DNA of 64,000 nt from Parasitella parasitica NRRL 2501. Its lineage: Eukaryota; Fungi; Mucoromycota. The notes under the pieces are model-generated. The model searched no databases. It had not been told where the DNA came from and was given only the letters and a program-made list of their open reading frames with translations. How positions within the stretch are numbered: position 1 is the first letter of the stretch; each line of letters starts with the position of its first letter. Location: NCBI GenBank assembly GCA_025201805.1, contig MU619271.1, forward strand, positions 1,169 to 65,168, read 5' to 3'. The translations under genes and the position numbers were made by a program. Shown piece by piece: positions 8,294 to 62,891 of the stretch.

Positions 8294-9238
8294 TACTAAT
8301 AAATCAAAGCAAAAGAGGAAAAACAAAAGTGAGCCACCCTAGATAACTTGATGAAGCCACATTTAACATCAAGTCCGCCTGCAATAATGCGCAATCAGAT
8401 GCAAAACGATCTGTAACCATTTAATCGTGTGCGAAAATTATATAAAGTGAATATGCTAAATGACTTTATCTTATACACACAATATCTTACTTTACAATAC
8501 CAAATCTTTTCGTTGTCCTCTTAATTGACACTTGCCACATTAAGACATATTCGTTTGAATGGCTAAACTATGCCTCGGCTGATGGAACTGATGCAATCTG
8601 GCTCACGTAATAGTCGTTATTGCATGTTGTAGCCATATAGAACAGCTGCTACTTTTATTCTGCTGTCCAAGACCTTGACCGAGACAAATGTTTCTCCTTT
8701 TCGACATTTCCGGGCATCACATGTATGCAAGCTTATATTAATTTGACGTGTATTTTATCATCATGTAAACAAAACGCTTTTTATATATTTGCGTAGTACT
8801 AGATGTGATTGGAAGAATGGGATCATCGTAAAATGCAATTACAATAAATATACATTAATATGGCTAATTTGTTATACAACTGAATCTCAAATTATGTCAT
8901 ATTCAACAGTTTTAGTTTGAGGCACATTTTTGATATAGAGCGAGCAGTGAGACAGCACATAATCCAGCAACAGAAACGAAAAACCAGAAAAAGCCTTGTA
9001 TATATGGGTATTTTTGCCGTTTAAGCCTTTCATCTACTATTTCAACCAGTTTTTTAAACAAGTTTGGAGCTTTATTTTTGCTTGGTAACACAATTGGGGA
9101 ACTTATACCTTGGCAGTCTAATAGCACCAGTCTAAAACCGTTCCGTATTATACGACCATTTAGATCGTCATTGATTGTAGATCCCTAGATCTTTCTCTTT
9201 CTTTGCCTTTTTTTTTTCAACTTTATATATTATACACA

Positions 9239-10866
9239 ATGACATTTCTCGGTACAAAAGACACTGTTAAAAGATGCACACTGCTTGCTATTGCATTGAC
9301 ATGCTCGTTGATTATTTCTACATTGATTTATTCCTTGATGAGAGATCCCATCTTCAGTGATGCCAAGCAACCATACAGATACCCTGCCATGGTCAAATAC
9401 AGCTACAGATGGCCCAGCATCTCCTCCTATGCACATGGTGTGCATGATACTGCTAATTTAACAGAAAAAAATGATATTTACAAAGAAATCGACCAGAGAT
9501 ACTGCGGACAGGAAAGATGTAGGTTCTTGCTGCCGATAGCCATCACCGAGCAAGGTACAAGCAACATCCGCCGTGTACTATATAACATATACTGACAGCC
9601 TTGAATAATAGAATCGAAGGCACAATTGCATTTCAGACAACTGGCATTCCTGGCCGGTAAAATTGGCAGGACCATTGTGCTGCCCAATGTACACAATTCG
9701 CATTTAGGGGCATGTTTGCCACATCCATTCACGTTTTACTACAACTCGGACTGGCTGGATGCAAACAAACAGCATTTCAACTACATCACAATGGAAGACT
9801 TTAGGGCATGGCTGCTTGAAAGGCATTCCGCAGGCGTTATACCTTCCGGACAGGAGATCTACATGCAAGGTTCTCGGAAATCAAGGCTATTGACCAAAAT
9901 CAACAACTGTTTTGGAAATTCGTTTGATTTTTCAAATAGACCCACAGTTGGTTATCAGTTGCAAGACCATCAAAACCAGCGCCATGTTAACATTACAAAT
10001 ATCATGGTTAATCTGTTTAGCGACAACGCCAGACAACATGAATATCTTGATGGACAGCATTCACCCACCTCCTTGTTTGACACAATCAAGGCCCCTCCAG
10101 TCGATGTGATCAACTTGTTCTATGACAGAAGGTACTTTACACGGAGCAATATTAGTTGCTTCAAGGACAAATCTAACAAGCTTTTAATAGATACAAGTTT
10201 ATCAGCGATCATGACGCCCAAAAGCCGCTACCTTACAGTCAAAGATGGGTAAACGTGGCTAATCAGATTTCCAAGCAATTAACGCCATACGTGGCCATTC
10301 ATTGGAGAATGGAAAGGCTAGAGCCCGTATCTAACTTGCTGCCTTGCGCAGTGGATCTGGTTGATAAGGCCCAGCAGCTGGAAATGCCAAATAGTGAACC
10401 AAAACCTCTCAATGTGTTTCTTTTAACCGACTACCCGCATTTACTCAACGCAACTGGAGCAAAGCCCGAGTCAAATTCATTCCATGTGAATGAGTTGAAG
10501 GAAGAGCACCACAAAGCTGTTGAGTATTTGTATCAGCATTTGAATGTCTCTCTCACGTCCGTCAACAATAACATGATACCCTACAATGAGCTGCCCAAGG
10601 AAAACTGGCATATCTTGCCAATTGACGCGTCTTCGGATGACAGCCTATTCCCTGCTGCTGATCGCAGCGTGCTCGGTATTGTCGATAAATTAGTCGCCAT
10701 GAATGCACAGTGGTTCTTTGCTGGCCGCCCTGGAGTATGCGCAAAGTCAAGTAGCTTTACTGGTCGTATATCAAACAGTAGAATCCAAGCATTCAAACAC
10801 GGCGCGGAAAATGTCATTAAGCCTGTTGAAACATTTGATATGACAAGGCAACCGACTCAATTTTAA
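9239..10866 (+). CDS. GDP-fucose O-fucosyltransferase-like (O-FucT family) type II membrane glycosyltransferase, 3 exons
   Basis: N-terminal TM anchor, EQESKAQLHF...LAGKIGRTIVLP, PYVAIHWRME, VFLLTDYP, LGIVDKLVAMNAQWF...SSSFT. These match the O-FucT motifs HxR, TD, D..V and SSF. Confidence 0.75.
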
Positions 10867-11102
10867 GCGCCATAATCGCTTTGTAGTAACATATTTCGTT
10901 TTGAGCATACATTTGTATTATACATATACATAGTAAAAATAAAGCTTGCATTTTGGAAGACTAATTCCTCAAACAAAAAAACAAAAAAAAAGGATGCAAC
11001 AAATTACAACATAAAGATCACACATGTCCTAATCCCAAAAATTTAGTATCATCACAAGTAAACTATTCTGTTTATTTTCTATCAAGCCTCTTGCAAGCAC
11101 AA

Positions 11103-11405
11103 CTATTGATCATTTTTTGAGAGTTGCTCAGCTGCGCCAGGAGGCATACATAAACCCCCGGCAGCGCATGTTAGTCCAGGGCAACATGCTCTGTTGGCAT
11201 GGCAACCGTTGAACGGTATATTGTCAAAAGTGTCGTGCATAGTCAGACAGTTGAGGGTAGGAATTGGAGGTGGTTTCCGCCATTCCTGCGGAACACTAGA
11301 CTGTGGCAAACGAGGGTGCTTCTTTTTTTTCTTCTGGGTAGTTTCAGTTATGAACAAAGACAAAACGATGAGAGAGATGGCACAAAGTTTGAGATTGTAT
11401 TGCAT
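11103..11405 (-). CDS. Small secreted cysteine-knot (ICK/conotoxin-like) prepropeptide, 100 aa
   Basis: Signal peptide MQYNLKLCAISLIVLSLFITETT, a basic/Pro-rich pro-region, and a core C-x14-C-x5-CC-x4-C-x5-C. Paralog of 12418-12678. Confidence 0.8.
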   Translation of the reverse strand: MQYNLKLCAISLIVLSLFITETTQKKKKKHPRLPQSSVPQEWRKPPPIPTLNCLTMHDTFDNIPFNGCHANRACCPGLTCAAGGLCMPPGAAEQLSKNDQ

Positions 11406-11522
11406 TCGGGAAAATCTTTAATAAAGTAAAAAGAGAGTTCGAATCCCACGAAGGATCCTAACTTTTGTATACACCACCGGTTCAAGGAGAAGCATTCATT
11501 GTTAGTATTTTCACTTGATCAG

Positions 11523-11538
11523 TTCTTTGTTCTCGGTT
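11523..11538 (-). promoter_or_regulatory. Conserved upstream element TTCTTTGTTCTCGGTT (contains the HMG-box/TR-box consensus TTCTTTGTTY)
   Basis: Identical 16-mer at 12779-12794 and variants at 61891-61906 and 63906-63921. In the three intact peptide genes it lies upstream of a TATA-like element. Confidence 0.4.
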
Positions 11539-12226
11539 CATCAGGAGAGAACGTAAAAGATTGACTGGGTTTTATTGTCTCTATTTTGTGGTGTATGAAC
11601 GAGTTTGATTAGAATTTCGTTACTAAATGAGTTATAAAAGTAGAATTGAGGTTGAAAGCGCATTATTAGGACATTACCTCTAAGCAGCTCCAACTTGAGG
11701 CCTCATCTAAATTTTGCGATCTGAAAAGAATACCGTACCTATTCACTTAATTTCGGAGTATCCGCCAGCCTCAATGATTAATCTTATTGTGGTTTATTAA
11801 GCTTTATTCGTTAGTATATACTCAATTATTCAATTGGATAGAAGTATTGCCTTTTCAGCGAGCTATGGGATTCGCATATGTCCTCTGCATACTTATGTGA
11901 TCGAGTCCATTTATCTAGTAGTGTGCACCAAGATAAACTATGTGAACGGTAAAGGTTGACATTTTTAATTGCTAACATTGCTATCTACTTGGGCTGACAT
12001 GGCTTCACTGCACATTTCCGCACGAATCTTGATATTCAACTCTTTTCATAAATTTCTAGATTCATCCTTTCAAGAATAAAGAAATAGGCTCTCCATTCAA
12101 CAGCTCAGGGCGTTTCTTGACGAGAAAATTTGCTTGAGCCACAATGGAATGGTAGTCGATTGCAGTACGGTTTATTTCCATTTGATCAACGCTTTCGCCC
12201 ATCACACAAATACCCAAAGTTATTCA

Positions 12227-12236
12227 NNNNNNNNNN
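12227..12236. other. Assembly gap (N run)
   Basis: N characters. Confidence 1.
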
Positions 12237-12294
<58 letters not shown>

Positions 12295-12417
12295 AATACG
12301 CAGCGAATTGAGAGTGAAAGGTCTGTATTGATAAAACATGGCCAAATAGGCTTACTGTCTGGTCTACAAAAAAAATTAACTAGTGTGTCTCTTTACAGAA
12401 ACCATGCAGAATTCAAG

Positions 12418-12678
12418 CTAAAAACCTTTCCTAATAGTGCACGAACCAGCATGACAACGACCACCACCACAGCAGGGTGGAGTGTGAGCACTAGTACTAC
12501 ATGAAAGACCAGCCTGTATGCAATAAGGCTGAGGTGGGATTCGGTCTTCGGCCTTGATCCCTGACTGAGGCAGAGAGGGGGATTTCTCGTCTCTCTTGCG
12601 ATTTGTCTGGGTAGTTTCTGTTACGAATAATGATACGACAACCAGAGACACGGTCCAGAGCTTGAGGTTGAGAAGCAT
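12418..12678 (-). CDS. Small secreted cysteine-knot (ICK/conotoxin-like) prepropeptide, 86 aa
   Basis: Signal MLLNLKLWTVSLVVVSLFVTETT, Kex2-type RKR site, core C-x6-C-x8-CC-x4-C-x4-C. TATAAAA lies ~70 nt upstream. Confidence 0.85.
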   Translation of the reverse strand: MLLNLKLWTVSLVVVSLFVTETTQTNRKRDEKSPSLPQSGIKAEDRIPPQPYCIQAGLSCSTSAHTPPCCGGGRCHAGSCTIRKGF

Positions 12679-13189
12679 TTTAAATAATGTGAATTGCAGA
12701 GTGTATGAGAAAACCGGAAACAAACAGACCAAGAAAAGTTCAAATTTTTTATATGGGGAGTCCAGGACGCACGATGAATTCTTTGTTCTCGGTTTTTGGA
12801 GAGGACATGATTTGAATTTCGTTTAGTTTTACTAAACATCAGAATATCATGATCTGAGGTTTTGCTTTCTCCTATTTTGTATTCTATCATCATCATCGTC
12901 ATCATAATCATTGAACGCACAATGTAGGGTGTTTATGATTGATGAGACATTCATTCAGGTATGATGAGAATCCAATCAGCCGTGTATCCAAGAGTGATAA
13001 AACGTGAGCTACCGTACAAAACTTTCCACAGCATTTAGCTCTGCCAAAATTGTTCCTGTAATCCAAAAGGCCAATCATCTGAGTGTACTCTGTAACTGAA
13101 ACGCGTGTCAAGCACGATCAGATTCCAAGCCGCAGATTAATAATAATGTGTAGTTTTTTCCTTGTATTAACCAGCAACAAAACCACACA

Positions 13190-15831
13190 ATGGGAAGCCC
13201 TAGGAAAAAAGAAATCTATGCAAGTCCCACTGCAATCTTATCTTCTCTTCGAAGAAGCAAACGAAATTGCAGCAGAGACACAGAAGAAGTCTCTGACGAC
13301 GAAGTCCAATTGTGCCAAGTTCGCTCTGCTGAGGGATCTCCTGAACGACATACAGCCCAACGTACCCATGCGTCAAGAATGTACCATCAATCGCCACAGC
13401 GTCTGTCTTCCTCGTCCAGAATTCCCTCAGATTCATGGCAAGACGCTTCAGCAAAACCGCTTGTGCCTCAAACACCTAATCAGGTCGCCGTATCCAAGAC
13501 GAAGGATAACGAGATTACCCAAGCTCCAGAGACAACCATATCGCTTGGAAAACGTAAAACCGACGAATCCTTGGATGCAAACGACCAAACAAGAGCACCA
13601 AATCAATCACAGGATTCTCAGGAAGCACGCAATGCCTACTTGACGAAAAAACTGCAGCTGCAGTCTTCTCAGCAGATTTCAGCTTCGTCCTCAAGACTTC
13701 CCTCTGATTCATGGCAAGATGCTTCTACTGAACCTCTGGCCCCTCCAGACAGTGCGCATCGAGATAGTTTTCCACTTTCCAAGCCTAGCGACTCACCAGC
13801 TGCCTCGAGAAAGCGTAAAGCGAATGTGCCCGTGGATTTAGACGCACTCACGAAAGCATTGCGTCGAACAAAAGAAAACGTAAGTATGATGCTCTTCTTG
13901 GAATCTTACAAAAAAAAAACTGGATTTGATGATTTGTCTTTGTTTAGGCATCTATTGCATCACAGGCTAAAACTAACGATAGCTTTGCTGAAAAGAAGGG
14001 CGCTGGAAATCAGCAAACAACCAAAGCGGTCGAAAGCAGCCAAGAGCAAAAGCAGCCTATTTCTGGCAAAGCAACAGAACCAGAAAAGAGTATGGATCCA
14101 CCAAATGAGCAGGGGGACACAAGACCCACTAAAGAAGAGGAAGAAGCTCGTATCGTCAAAGAGATCGATCATATTATGAAAACTGTCAAATGCCTACCCA
14201 ATTACTACAAATTGGTCGATAAAATTGGCGAGGGCACATTCAGTACAGTGTATAAAGCTCAAGATATCCGTAGAGATTACTATGACAACAATGAGTGGGA
14301 GCCTCAATTGCTTGAGAGTACTCAAAACTCATACGTCTCTCCATGTGCTACGCCTACCCGACCAACAGCATCAGCAGAGACAACATATCAAGACAAAGGT
14401 AAAAGCAGCCAGTCTCCACCATCGTCCCCTAAAGATTTGAGCGAATTTGTTGCTCTCAAGAGAGTTTACGATACCAGTAGCCCCCGAAGAATTGCCAACG
14501 AAATCAAAATCCTCAGGAAGCTCAAAGGTAGCAAATGTATTTCCCCAATGATCACTGCATTTAGGCAGCAAGACCAGGTCTTTGTTGTAATGCCCTATAT
14601 TCAGCATGATGAATTCAAGCCATCATTCCATAAAATGGAAATAATCGATATCAAATACTACATGAAGTCGTTGTTTACAGCTTTACAACAACTTCACAAT
14701 TTCAAAATACTGCATCGTGATGTAAAGCCCAATAATTTTCTGTACAATATCCGTAAAAGAGCAGGCTATCTTATTGATTTTGGATTAGCAGAGGTAAAAA
14801 AAAAAAGAAAAAAAAGAAAACAAAAGTGTTGCTTGTTCTATACATTCATACCTTTAGCACTTAGAGCGAAGACGACGTCAAGCAGCTGGAAATGTATGTC
14901 GAAAAAGCAACCAAGGCGTCAAAATTTAGCGTTTACGCTCAAGCACATCATCAGAACAGCAGCATCACCAATGCTGCCAACAGCAATAGCATTAATAGCA
15001 AATCTATCGCCAAAATGGCAAGCTCCAATTCGGTGCTAGCAGCCCTTACAAACAAAGAAAATCGTGCTGGATTACCACCTACTACTTCCGCTTCCGTATC
15101 CTCGTCCGCATCTGCATCTGCATCCGCATCCGCATCCGCATCCGCATCCGCATCATCATCAGCAGCAGCACCTACAACACCCAATACTGGGCCACCAGGT
15201 TCTACAACGAGCAGACAATCAAACAGGATTATCAAAGGTTACATTAAAAATGATCCCAGATTATCAATTAGGGCAAATCGTGCAGGCACTCGTGGCTTTA
15301 GAGCTCCTGAGATTCTAATGAGAGTAACCCATCAGACATGCGGTAAGACTAGATGCAGGCTTTTATGGCTATTTTTTTTTTTTTTTTTTGGTATCTCACA
15401 AAAGACAAACATAGCTATTGATATTTGGGCTGCGGGTGTCATTTTATTGTGTTTTCTTACCAACACATATCCATTCTTCTTGTCGAATGATGAAGCTGAT
15501 GCACTTGTAGAATTAGGGCAGATATACGGATTAGAAAAATTGCAAGAGTGCGCTCGTACCAACAGTAAGTGTAGTAGTCTCTGATTTGTTCAACAACGTT
15601 GATTTTTTTTTTCTTTCAGATCGCCATTTTGAGACAAATGTCAATATACCGAAAACAAAATTACCTTGGACTACACTGATAGAAATACTAAACAAAGAGA
15701 AAGTTCAAACATGGAGCCGACGAGACTATGATGCAGCTGTGGATTTATTGAGAAGATCGTTAGAATTAGATCCAAACAAACGAATCACGGCAGAAGAGGC
15801 TTTGAAAATGGATTTTCTTCAGGTAGATTAG
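13190..15831 (+). CDS. CDC7: Cdc7/Hsk1 (DDK) serine/threonine kinase with a long low-complexity N-terminus, multi-exon
   Basis: KIGEGTFSTVYKA, VALKRVYDTSSPRRIANEI, HRDVKPNNFL, DFGLA, RANRAGTRGFRAPE, IDIWAAGVILL, RITAEEAL, with the Cdc7-type kinase inserts. Confidence 0.93.
15105..15152 (+). repeat. (GCATCC/GCATCT)n hexanucleotide repeat encoding poly-(Ala-Ser) in a Cdc7 kinase insert
   Basis: Directly visible tandem repeat; translates as SASASASASASASASA. Confidence 0.9.
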
Positions 15832-20320: not shown

Positions 20321-20460
20321 NNNNNNNNNNNNNNNNNNNNNNNNNNNNNNNNNNNNNNNNNNNNNNNNNNNNNNNNNNNNNNNNNNNNNNNNNNNNNNNN
20401 NNNNNNNNNNNNNNNNNNNNNNNNNNNNNNNNNNNNNNNNNNNNNNNNNNNNNNNNNNNN
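20321..20460. other. Assembly gap (N run)
   Basis: N characters flanked by T-tracts. Confidence 1.
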
Positions 20461-31183: not shown

Positions 31184-31318
31184 NNNNNNNNNNNNNNNNN
31201 NNNNNNNNNNNNNNNNNNNNNNNNNNNNNNNNNNNNNNNNNNNNNNNNNNNNNNNNNNNNNNNNNNNNNNNNNNNNNNNNNNNNNNNNNNNNNNNNNNNN
31301 NNNNNNNNNNNNNNNNNN
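31184..31318. other. Assembly gap (N run)
   Basis: N characters; probably hides the 5' end of ATG26. Confidence 1.
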
Positions 31319-61610: not shown

Positions 61611-61808
61611 TTAGCTGCATGTCTTTTGTTGTACCCGTATGCTTCCAGACCCAGGATGAAATGATGTAGTATGTAAATTACACTTTTGAGAGCAACATTC
61701 TGCTGAATTGCCACATATTTCATTGGAACCCTTACACTGAGCCGACACGAAGATGGATAATGACAACACAATGAGAGAAGTAGTGTAAAATTTAAGATTG
61801 AAGAGCAT
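61611..61808 (-). CDS. Small secreted cysteine-knot (ICK/conotoxin-like) peptide, 65 aa
   Basis: Signal MLFNLKFYTTSLIVLSLSIFVSA followed directly by QC-x6-C-x5-CC-x3-C-x20-CS. TATA box at ~61862-61870. Confidence 0.85.
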   Translation of the reverse strand: MLFNLKFYTTSLIVLSLSIFVSAQCKGSNEICGNSAECCSQKCNLHTTSFHPGSGSIRVQQKTCS

Positions 61809-62891
61809 TTTGAAGAAAATGTTATAAGAAATTAAAAAAAAAGGGAAAGAGTCAGTTTGATATTTATATACCAACAGATAATGAATGCACTTCTTTGCTT
61901 TCAGTTATCAGAAAACATTGGATAAATAAAGAATATAGCAAAAGTTAGCGTGGTTGCAACCATCAGCTTAATATATTATGCAGCTATTATTAACAATTCC
62001 ACATAGTACACTCGCATTTGGAGCAACCAGGATTAGAAAGGGCTTCGCATCCGCACCACAATTTTATCATTACTGTGGTGTTCAAAGTAGAACTACCGAT
62101 AGTTTCTACTTTAAAGAATGATTTTAACTGCGAATGACTCAAGAGACTAGATGCTTTATCACAAGTTGCTTTGAGAACAAAGAACCCCCTCTTTAAGAAG
62201 CAAACTACACTGACTGTAAATTTATTGCTCACAATGAATATTTTGATGGCGATAAAAATAAAGGTAGCTAGTCTGATTTTTAGGATATCAAATGTCAATT
62301 GCACAATTCAAGGCGTTGTCCTAATATGTTTGAATTGATCAGCTCTCATGGGTTTATAGATGTGCGCTTATAAAATATCATATGGCCTTTGAGAAAATAC
62401 ATAAGAAAGATGCTGTGAGCATTGCAATTTGATACGTCGAAATCATAATATTGTTTTTATGTATTGTATATTTGCCAGTATCGCCTTATATACAATTAGA
62501 AAGATCTTTTCATGCACATACTAAGTATTGCAACTACTGTGCTTACAGAGCTGCTTTCAGGACTATTTTCAACAAATTCATGTCCAATTTGACTAAAAAT
62601 CACAGCTACACCGCTTCAGTATCATGGCTTGGCATAAACAAGTCTATCGAGACGCACTACTGTCATTTTTTGTATAATCCATCGGATTCACTCCAGAATG
62701 CCTCATTGAAAACATTCTCAGTCTATGATTACTAAATGCTATGATATTTGGCATAAACCATAATGTGGGTCGCTTATTCAGTGAAATTTGCTCTATTATA
62801 TATTAATTAGTTTTACGATTTGGAATGCTTCTAATTATATCGTGGTAGGCTTGTGTTATGCGGTACCATTCCATATGTGACATTTGTCAAT

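Follow-up and report, generated by a model that had tools for sequence, protein, structure and literature searches.

Three small genes sharing one family of signal peptides lie on the minus strand of the 64-kb window, the whole stretch of DNA analysed here, which is intron-containing and fungal in type with ~40% GC. Genes A and B form a pair, and both minus-strand open reading frames were found where the original prediction had placed two same-strand genes ~1 kb apart. Gene C, which that prediction had overlooked, is located 49 kb away from the pair. It came to light through a copy of the signal at 61736–61809 (repeat search, family D15; tblastn) that opens a 65-residue frame, and its core begins one residue past the likely signal cut. 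A profile of the three signals scored above threshold only at A, B and C in the 64-kb window, and it is to this window only that family size and all motif counts apply. The three reading frames are intact and free of internal tandem repeats, and each carries six core cysteines in the knottin-type order C-C-CC-C-C within a short domain, spaced C-x14-C-x5-CC-x4-C-x5-C in A, C-x6-C-x8-CC-x4-C-x4-C in B and C-x6-C-x5-CC-x3-C-x20-C in C. The first loop of A and the last loop of C are presumably unusually long compared to the knottin norm. Since C has no spacer, the pro-region is optional, and the unit of the family is signal plus knot, with a spacer added in A and B.

Sequences from five of 16 listed runs (X4, X6, X10, X11 and X13) were compared with the window, and X10 was left out as its differences were only C>T and G>A changes (bisulfite-like). 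The pair is flanked on one side by a gene with an N-terminal membrane anchor, which is ~84% alike in the relative represented by run X11, has no Pfam match, and may be a glycosyltransferase. On the other flank lies a CDC7 kinase gene, for which the best PDB match is yeast Cdc7 (E 6.6e-37). The interval between A and B measures 1012 nt, including a 10-N gap and 55 nt of poly-A. This tract is bridged by no contig in the four runs compared, and both the distance between A and B and their adjacency therefore rest on the scaffold. Two more scaffold gaps occur further along the window (Table 1).

Table 1. Positions of the genes, putative regulatory words and scaffold features in the 64-kb window.
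Feature	Position	Strand	Description
Membrane-anchored gene flanking the pair	9239–10866	+	Three exons; two introns spliced in run X4
Gene A	11103..11405	-	100 aa; ORF, RNA contig; signal ~1–23, spacer 24–52, six-Cys core 53–86, tail of 14 residues
TATA-like word	11464..11471	-	-66 of A; counterparts at -75 of B and -62 of C (consensus match only)
Second HMG-type word, AACAATGAA	11495–11503	-	-98 of A
Upstream element of A, 16-mer AACCGAGAACAAAGAA	11523..11538	-	12-mer core at -129 from ATG; HMG/TR-box-like
Intron upstream of A	11581..11677	-	97 nt, GT..AG, spliced in X4 contig
A–B interval: 10-N scaffold gap plus poly-A tract	12227..12291	.	
Gene B	12418..12678	-	86 aa; ORF, RNA contig; signal, spacer with KR28–29 and E-D-R46, six-Cys core 53–80
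Upstream element of B, identical 16-mer	12779..12794	-	Core at -112
Scaffold gap	20321–20460		140 N
Scaffold gap	31184–31318		135 N
Gene C, third paralogue	61611..61808	-	65 aa; no spacer; signal family common with A and B
12-mer upstream of C	62173..62184	+	Inverted, at -376

Divergence of signal, spacer and core

Residues 1–46 of A and 1–49 of B align with 27/49 identities (BLASTP, E 9e-8) and the alignment ends before the Cys core, in agreement with the earlier description of a pair that aligns through signal and pro-region. As MAFFT misaligned the cysteines, the codon alignment of A and B was anchored by hand in two variants. Protein identity is 16/24 in the signal, 11/22 in the spacer and 2–3 of 19 aligned non-Cys residues in the core; divergence thus rises from signal to spacer to core rather than being uniform along the genes, and the cores do, as had been claimed, share almost only their cysteines. 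Substitution estimates were dN 0.21 and dS 1.31 for the signal (dN/dS ~0.16) and dN 0.53 and dS 1.10 for the spacer, while non-Cys nucleotide identity in the core is 26–30%, with silent sites saturated in both hand alignments. Even the six Cys codons all differ between A and B, TGT against TGC each time (11148–11249; 12439–12522). Because silent sites are near-saturated in signal and spacer and saturated in the core, dN/dS is not estimable and diversifying selection is not inferable; the region-wise comparison by codon alignment yielded values for signal and spacer, and no core ratio. Judged from the extent of sequence divergence, the A/B duplication is old.

Alleles provide a comparison at closer range. 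The X6 allele of A keeps the frame and all cysteines. Among the differences listed (40 of the 41 on its contig), the signal holds no replacement and two silent changes, the spacer three replacements and two silent changes, the core two replacements and no silent change, and the tail none; replacement versus silent counts do not distinguish core from spacer (Fisher p = 1). In the coding part of A, 10/303 nt (3.3%) are changed compared to 14/1628 (0.86%) in the neighbouring gene, and a similar share is changed in the 220 nt that precede A (9/220). The coding sequences of B and C are identical in X6. Over the wider region, X6 departs from the window at 41 positions across 9200–12226 and at none across 12301–14787, placing a sharp haplotype boundary between A and B, near the scaffold gap. 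The strain may be recombinant or hybrid, or A may lie in an old allele block.

Two relatives extend the comparison. In X11, 7 of the first 10 readable spacer residues of a B-like copy differ. In X13, the C orthologue aligns over the signal and the start of the core with 12 differences in 83 nt; C32 and C38–C39 are in frame, and there are four mild replacements among 10 core residues (hand-read from a 30-nt loose end) and three silent changes among the six residues kept. A second X13 contig carries an A/B-type signal, with the TTQ end at the same positions. In the allele and orthologue data, the spacer changes at least as fast as the core. The pattern fits purifying selection on the signal and the Cys frame, with the spacer and the loops loosely constrained, and positive selection on the cores is possible. 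The diversifying selection previously ascribed to the mature peptide was nevertheless not upheld, given saturated synonymous sites, an allelic contrast of core and spacer at p = 1, and a spacer that changes fast in X11 (7/10) while the C core of X13 keeps its Cys frame.

Processing and predicted fold of the products

Cleavage sites were assigned by rule, with K, R or P required at P2 for Kex2. B has a single KR site, KR28–29, which is followed by DE and lies 24 residues before the first core Cys, A is without KR or RR and has one possible Kex2 site at PR31–32, and C contains no KR. The basic clusters reported after the signal are thus present in both A and B, although A has neither of the dibasic pairs that had been invoked. 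In the X6 allele of A, P31 is changed to H and K26 to R, such that PR32 is lost and KR26 gained; the loss of one possible site alongside the gain of another favours some Kex2 trimming of A. In the B-like copy of X11, 3/10 residues are kept after K28, with no Arg at position 29 (hand-read, 30-nt loose end), and residues 25–28 are unreadable, so a shifted site there is possible. The Kex2-type sites directly follow the signal, ahead of the LPQS stretch. A cut so close to the signal would remove 5–9 residues and leave ~20 residues before the first Cys, the conserved LPQS stretch among them.

A different motif, E-x-R-x-P-P, is kept near the end of the spacer in both A and B, where the core junction reads QEWR and AEDR, respectively. 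Neither E-W-R nor E-D-R is a Kex2 site, as P2 must be K, R or P. Placed ahead of the core, this E-x-R agrees with the processing motif of spiders, Arg at -1 and Glu at -2 to -4, given in excerpts of PMC6832493, and the conserved triplet is a better candidate for the pro-cut than the Kex2-type sites. Excerpts of the KEP survey (PMC7329392) count KK and RK as sites too and define KEPs by three or more tandem repeats between Kex2 sites, an arrangement absent from A, B and C; those of PMC8999023 offer general Kex2 background only. The proposed signal–pro–mature precursor accordingly stands in part: a signal, a spacer, a knottin-type core, a good Kex2 site in B and one possible site in A are all present, but the sites precede the conserved LPQS stretch and the paralogue C has no spacer.

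With respect to fold, B matched the Pfam Conotoxin family PF02950 at E 1e-4 and 23.6 bits and A at 14.5 bits, both below the gathering cut-off of 25.1, and C gave no PF02950 match. All Pfam matches were sub-threshold, and all were to ICK toxin families. The model of the B core (pLDDT 74) contains a C-terminal hairpin at 28–35. ICK peptides rank first for this model in Foldseek (best E 0.38; none at E 0.001), and VIA returned 44 rows at Z 2–3.4, mostly cystine-knot peptides, of which the best was a spider ICK peptide with Z 3.4, a value under 5, and rmsd 1.1 over 30 residues. A hairpin is also predicted in the A model (pLDDT 56), for which Foldseek rows were weak and VIA found 0 of 48161 chains at Z 2. 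Atlas scores reached 0.89 for B and 0.82 for C, both to animal ICK clusters, and are leads only; PDB sequence searches gave nothing under E 0.3. None of the structural matches reached significance. By Cys pattern more than by score, B is likely a knottin and A and C are probably knottins, and the six-Cys cores of all three are likely to fold as inhibitor cystine knots.

Database searches found no homologue. NCBI nr contains A as a one-member cluster, with B and C absent as exact sequences. A word-based search recovered only A itself among two candidates for A and none for B or C. The full HMMER search with B returned three proteins at E 0.001, namely A and two long repeat proteins, one of 2657 aa matched in 22 stretches and one of 501 aa set aside as matching through its repeats. 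Scanning metagenomes with the alignment of the three proteins and with the neighbouring kinase produced 69 and 159 pattern matches, respectively, and 0 confirmed relatives. In the literature searched, of incomplete coverage, we found no description of Mucorales knottins or of HMG control, a remark in a Histoplasma preprint excepted; excerpts of that preprint (bioRxiv 2025.05.13.653811) describe secreted fungal knottins with cleaved propeptides, with hits in Mucoromycota, and show that tagged knottins of Histoplasma lose their propeptide. A, B and C are best read as an old, lineage-restricted family of secreted knottins.

The upstream element and the transcripts that cross it

The word GAGAACAAAGAA occurs three times in 64 kb against 0.02 expected, once upstream of each gene. 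The count of the 12-mer TTCTTTGTTCTC was matched by 0/100 shuffles, and Markov models of orders 1–5 expect 0.02–0.03 copies. For the 16-mer of A and B, 16 letters were in common in 0/1427 control pairs made up of AT-rich 500-nt stretches, and a 10-mer taken from it occurs in 0/121 other 500-nt tiles of the window. Sharing of 12–13 nt, as between A and C or B and C, is reached by ~5% of control pairs, and the weight therefore lies in the same word occurring three times. A near-match, AGCAAAGAA, is found at -91 of C in the orientation of A and B. Of the upstream DNA earlier described as shared, the 16-mer is thus beyond chance, whereas the 10-nt second word, GAATTTCGTT, although present, falls within it, since 53% of control pairs share 10 letters, and was rejected; its copy at A lies inside the intron of the long transcript.

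With silent sites near saturation and the surrounding upstream DNA no longer alignable, a 16-mer kept letter for letter points to constraint. No X6 difference falls inside the A element, compared to 9/220 nt upstream, in a stretch too short for significance alone. The X11 contig of the B-like copy aligns over the signal, leaves 84 nt unaligned and then realigns at 12771–12790, 20 nt that hold the word and form the only upstream stretch aligning there; this footprint is one 20-nt piece behind a short joint, a kind of alignment that calls for caution. The copy at C, being inverted and 376 nt from its gene, counts against common control, and contigs of the relatives X11 and X13 do not cover it. 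The eight letters after the C 12-mer (62164–62184) recur, one base shifted, past the 12-mer in the X11 B-like copy, and behind them the loose end of X11 at 12790 holds an imperfect inverted copy of the word; a longer element, or a double site, is possible. Separately, two X6 contigs end at 62264–62266, ~80 nt beyond the C element, with reverse-complementary loose ends that likely represent a transposon with terminal inverted repeats.

The letters of the word resemble binding sites of HMG-box factors. The TR-box consensus TTCTTTGTTY is present upstream of 3/3 genes, with five matches in the window against 1.04 expected, and in A and B a TATA-like word follows ~40–60 nt downstream of the element. 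The word exactly matches the Ste11 TR-box as given in excerpts of PMC10005788, and contains (A/G)ACAAAGAA, which excerpts of PMC3730723 report to be bound by Podospora PaHMG5 in EMSA. The same excerpts place this core word in ~5% of Podospora genes, such that the word alone does not mean mating, and they name ROX1 as an HMG factor unrelated to sex. The second HMG-type word listed in Table 1 is weak, as its 7-mer occurs 19 times in the window, and a shorter HMG consensus is also found at 15050, 29324 and 63906, with one inside the CDC7 gene region.

None of the matching runs is recorded as RNA, but run X4, which is identical in sequence to the window, was judged to be RNA because neighbouring genes show five GT..AG joints and introns lack cover. 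Its contigs cover A and B, and not C, and X11 covers the B-like copy, and not A or C; such lack of cover is no sign that the genes are missing. The pair is transcribed, for A at least on the coding strand. One X4 contig spans from 12199 down through A and another covers B over 12301–12981, with no joint in either coding part, and both stop at the poly-A tract. The spliced intron upstream of A implies minus-strand transcription from at least 12199 through A. Leaders measure at least 697 nt with 15 upstream ATGs before A and at least 303 nt with 11 before B, and these long RNAs would be expected to translate poorly. Since the contigs run through the upstream element at both A and B, the transcripts seen are not short mRNAs that start below the TATA-like word, and contigs cannot show transcript starts, short mRNAs or a common B–A transcript. 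The long transcript or transcripts at 11107–12981 (minus strand) cover both genes and their promoters and start within ~210 nt of the divergent CDC7, and could be read-through or a repressive long isoform. In the A–B intergenic region, three further X6 contigs match 11932–11986 and then diverge, delimiting a small repeated element.

A proposed explanation, its alternatives and known systems

We propose, with a probability of roughly 0.5, that A, B and C are old paralogues whose cores likely form inhibitor cystine knots, and which are likely secreted and likely switched on together by an HMG-box factor acting through the shared word. Such a factor would bind the element ~50 nt upstream of the TATA-like word and start a short mRNA. 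With respect to the parts of this proposal, the element is very probably functional, and the factor that binds it is rather probably of the HMG-box type; that this factor is related to mating is a tentative suggestion that we would not favour. The signal would almost certainly be cut at about residue 22–23. C would then leave the cell in this form. From A and B, a Kex2-like protease may trim 5–9 residues at KR or PR, and another protease may cut after the conserved E-x-R, freeing the knot; the odds that the spacer is removed in A and B seem to us about even. Once outside the cell, the stable peptides would affect a partner, a competitor or a grazer, possibly with a different target for each core. 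That the cores differ so much would follow from an old duplication in which only the Cys frame is constrained.

Excerpts of PMC3116813, PMC9233402 and PMC12638772 describe sex in the Mucorales as governed by the HMG genes sexP and sexM, with sexM mutants sterile. For A, B and C the mating link is a lead only, as it presupposes a Mucorales-like lineage, which gene style suggests, and the right HMG factor. In its full form, an HMG-box regulator of the sexual cycle (SexM/SexP or Ste11-like) would act on the three genes directly, and mating-induced knots would signal between partners or defend the mating zone or zygospore, held down in vegetative growth by the long, upstream-ATG-rich transcript over the promoters; we consider this quite improbable. 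The products may instead be ordinary secreted defence or cell-surface peptides with no sexual link, the word being bound by a non-HMG factor or acting in the 5′ leader RNA, which is possible if still doubtful. The RNA contigs that cross the element in A and B are compatible with a role in the leader, the run in which transcription was seen is of unrecorded condition, and consensus match alone ties the word to HMG factors. However, inversion of the word at C speaks for an element read in DNA rather than in RNA, and the conserved letters include the whole TR-box consensus.

The original prediction, a tandemly duplicated signal–pro–mature precursor that loses its pro-region through Kex2 cleavage at the basic cluster and whose mature peptides were split by positive selection, now appears unlikely. 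The identity gradient between spacer (11/22) and core (3/19) is consistent with it (Fisher p 0.046), as are the KR of B followed by acidic residues, preferred by Kex2, the one possible site kept per A allele (PR32 or KR26), the inclusion of KK and RK among the sites of the KEP survey, the replacement nature of both core changes between A alleles, and the excess of allelic difference in the coding part of A over the neighbouring gene. Yet the sites lie before the conserved stretch and not after it, C has no spacer, dN/dS above 1 is not demonstrable with dS saturated, allelic changes are no commoner in the core than in the spacer, and the spacer diverges fast while the C core is conserved across species. 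Similarly low odds attach to a history in which gene conversion evened out the 5′ halves (element, signal and spacer), or domain shuffling brought them in, the cores being much older or unrelated knottins. Identical codons occur at 12/26 kept residues in signal and spacer compared to 1/8 in the core, but this difference is not significant (p 0.12); the random level of core nucleotide identity and the wide variation in loop length would agree with such a history, whereas near-saturation of signal and spacer makes any conversion ancient, and C is non-adjacent yet has the same signal and element. Finally, that the genes are decaying or non-coding duplicates without function is very unlikely indeed and largely refuted by purifying selection, since three intact frames with six core Cys, an A allele that retains frame and cysteines, the low dN/dS of the signal and related copies in two divergent relatives weigh against the lack of a homologue in word-based, HMMER and metagenome searches and the long leaders rich in upstream ATGs.

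Secreted propeptide knottins and families with a conserved signal and variable core are already known, and the A/B pair is in itself modest news; what could matter most is the shared, apparently conserved TR-box-type element. Excerpts of PMC9233402 present what lies below the HMG sex genes in the regulation of the Mucorales as incompletely understood, and excerpts of PMC12638772 give some of the targets as known. The 12-mer in front of these three genes for small secreted products can be tested directly and could seed a genome-wide target search, and the family adds three knot scaffolds not studied before, two with a spacer and one lacking it. If the sexual-regulator reading were true, a TR-box cis-element and peptide effectors would be in hand for sex in an early-diverging fungus, from a lineage in which trisporoid small molecules are the mating signals known.

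Conotoxin and spider ICK precursors (PF02950, PF07740 and PF08093) share with A and B the signal–spacer–ICK layout, a conserved signal and divergent core, the C-C-CC-C-C frame, and Glu and Arg just before the core (PQM-like). Unlike their acidic spacers, those of A and B are basic and Pro-rich, and the Pfam scores obtained here all fall below cut-off. Conotoxins show position-specific conservation of Cys codons, whereas the Cys codons here differ between A and B. The likeness to ICK toxins may represent convergence on a common scaffold and says nothing about toxicity.

Among fungal proteins, the K2PP effectors (SnTox3 and the SIX proteins; bioRxiv 2020.05.27.120113) likewise combine a signal, a disordered-looking spacer and a Cys-rich domain, and B has a KR as they do. 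In K2PPs, KR, RR or LxxR marks the border of the mature domain; A and B instead have E-x-R there, P4 is not Leu, and the dibasic site of B follows the signal. The Fungi1 knottins (Histoplasma Knot1-4 and Cladosporium Avr9) come, according to excerpts of bioRxiv 2025.05.13.653811, from two-exon genes whose second exon encodes the Cys motif; A, B and C each have an uninterrupted coding part, and the sole intron lies upstream of the A start codon. No sequence match was found between the two groups, the spacer is optional in the A/B/C family, and those excerpts describe no common upstream HMG-type word for Fungi1 knottins, unlike that of A, B and C. The promoters of Ste11 and PaHMG5 targets are alike in having the 10-nt TR-box and the (A/G)ACAAAGAA core that occur upstream of all three genes; the targets known from the excerpted sources are ascomycete mating-type, pheromone-pathway and regulatory genes, whereas A, B and C are knottins by our reading.
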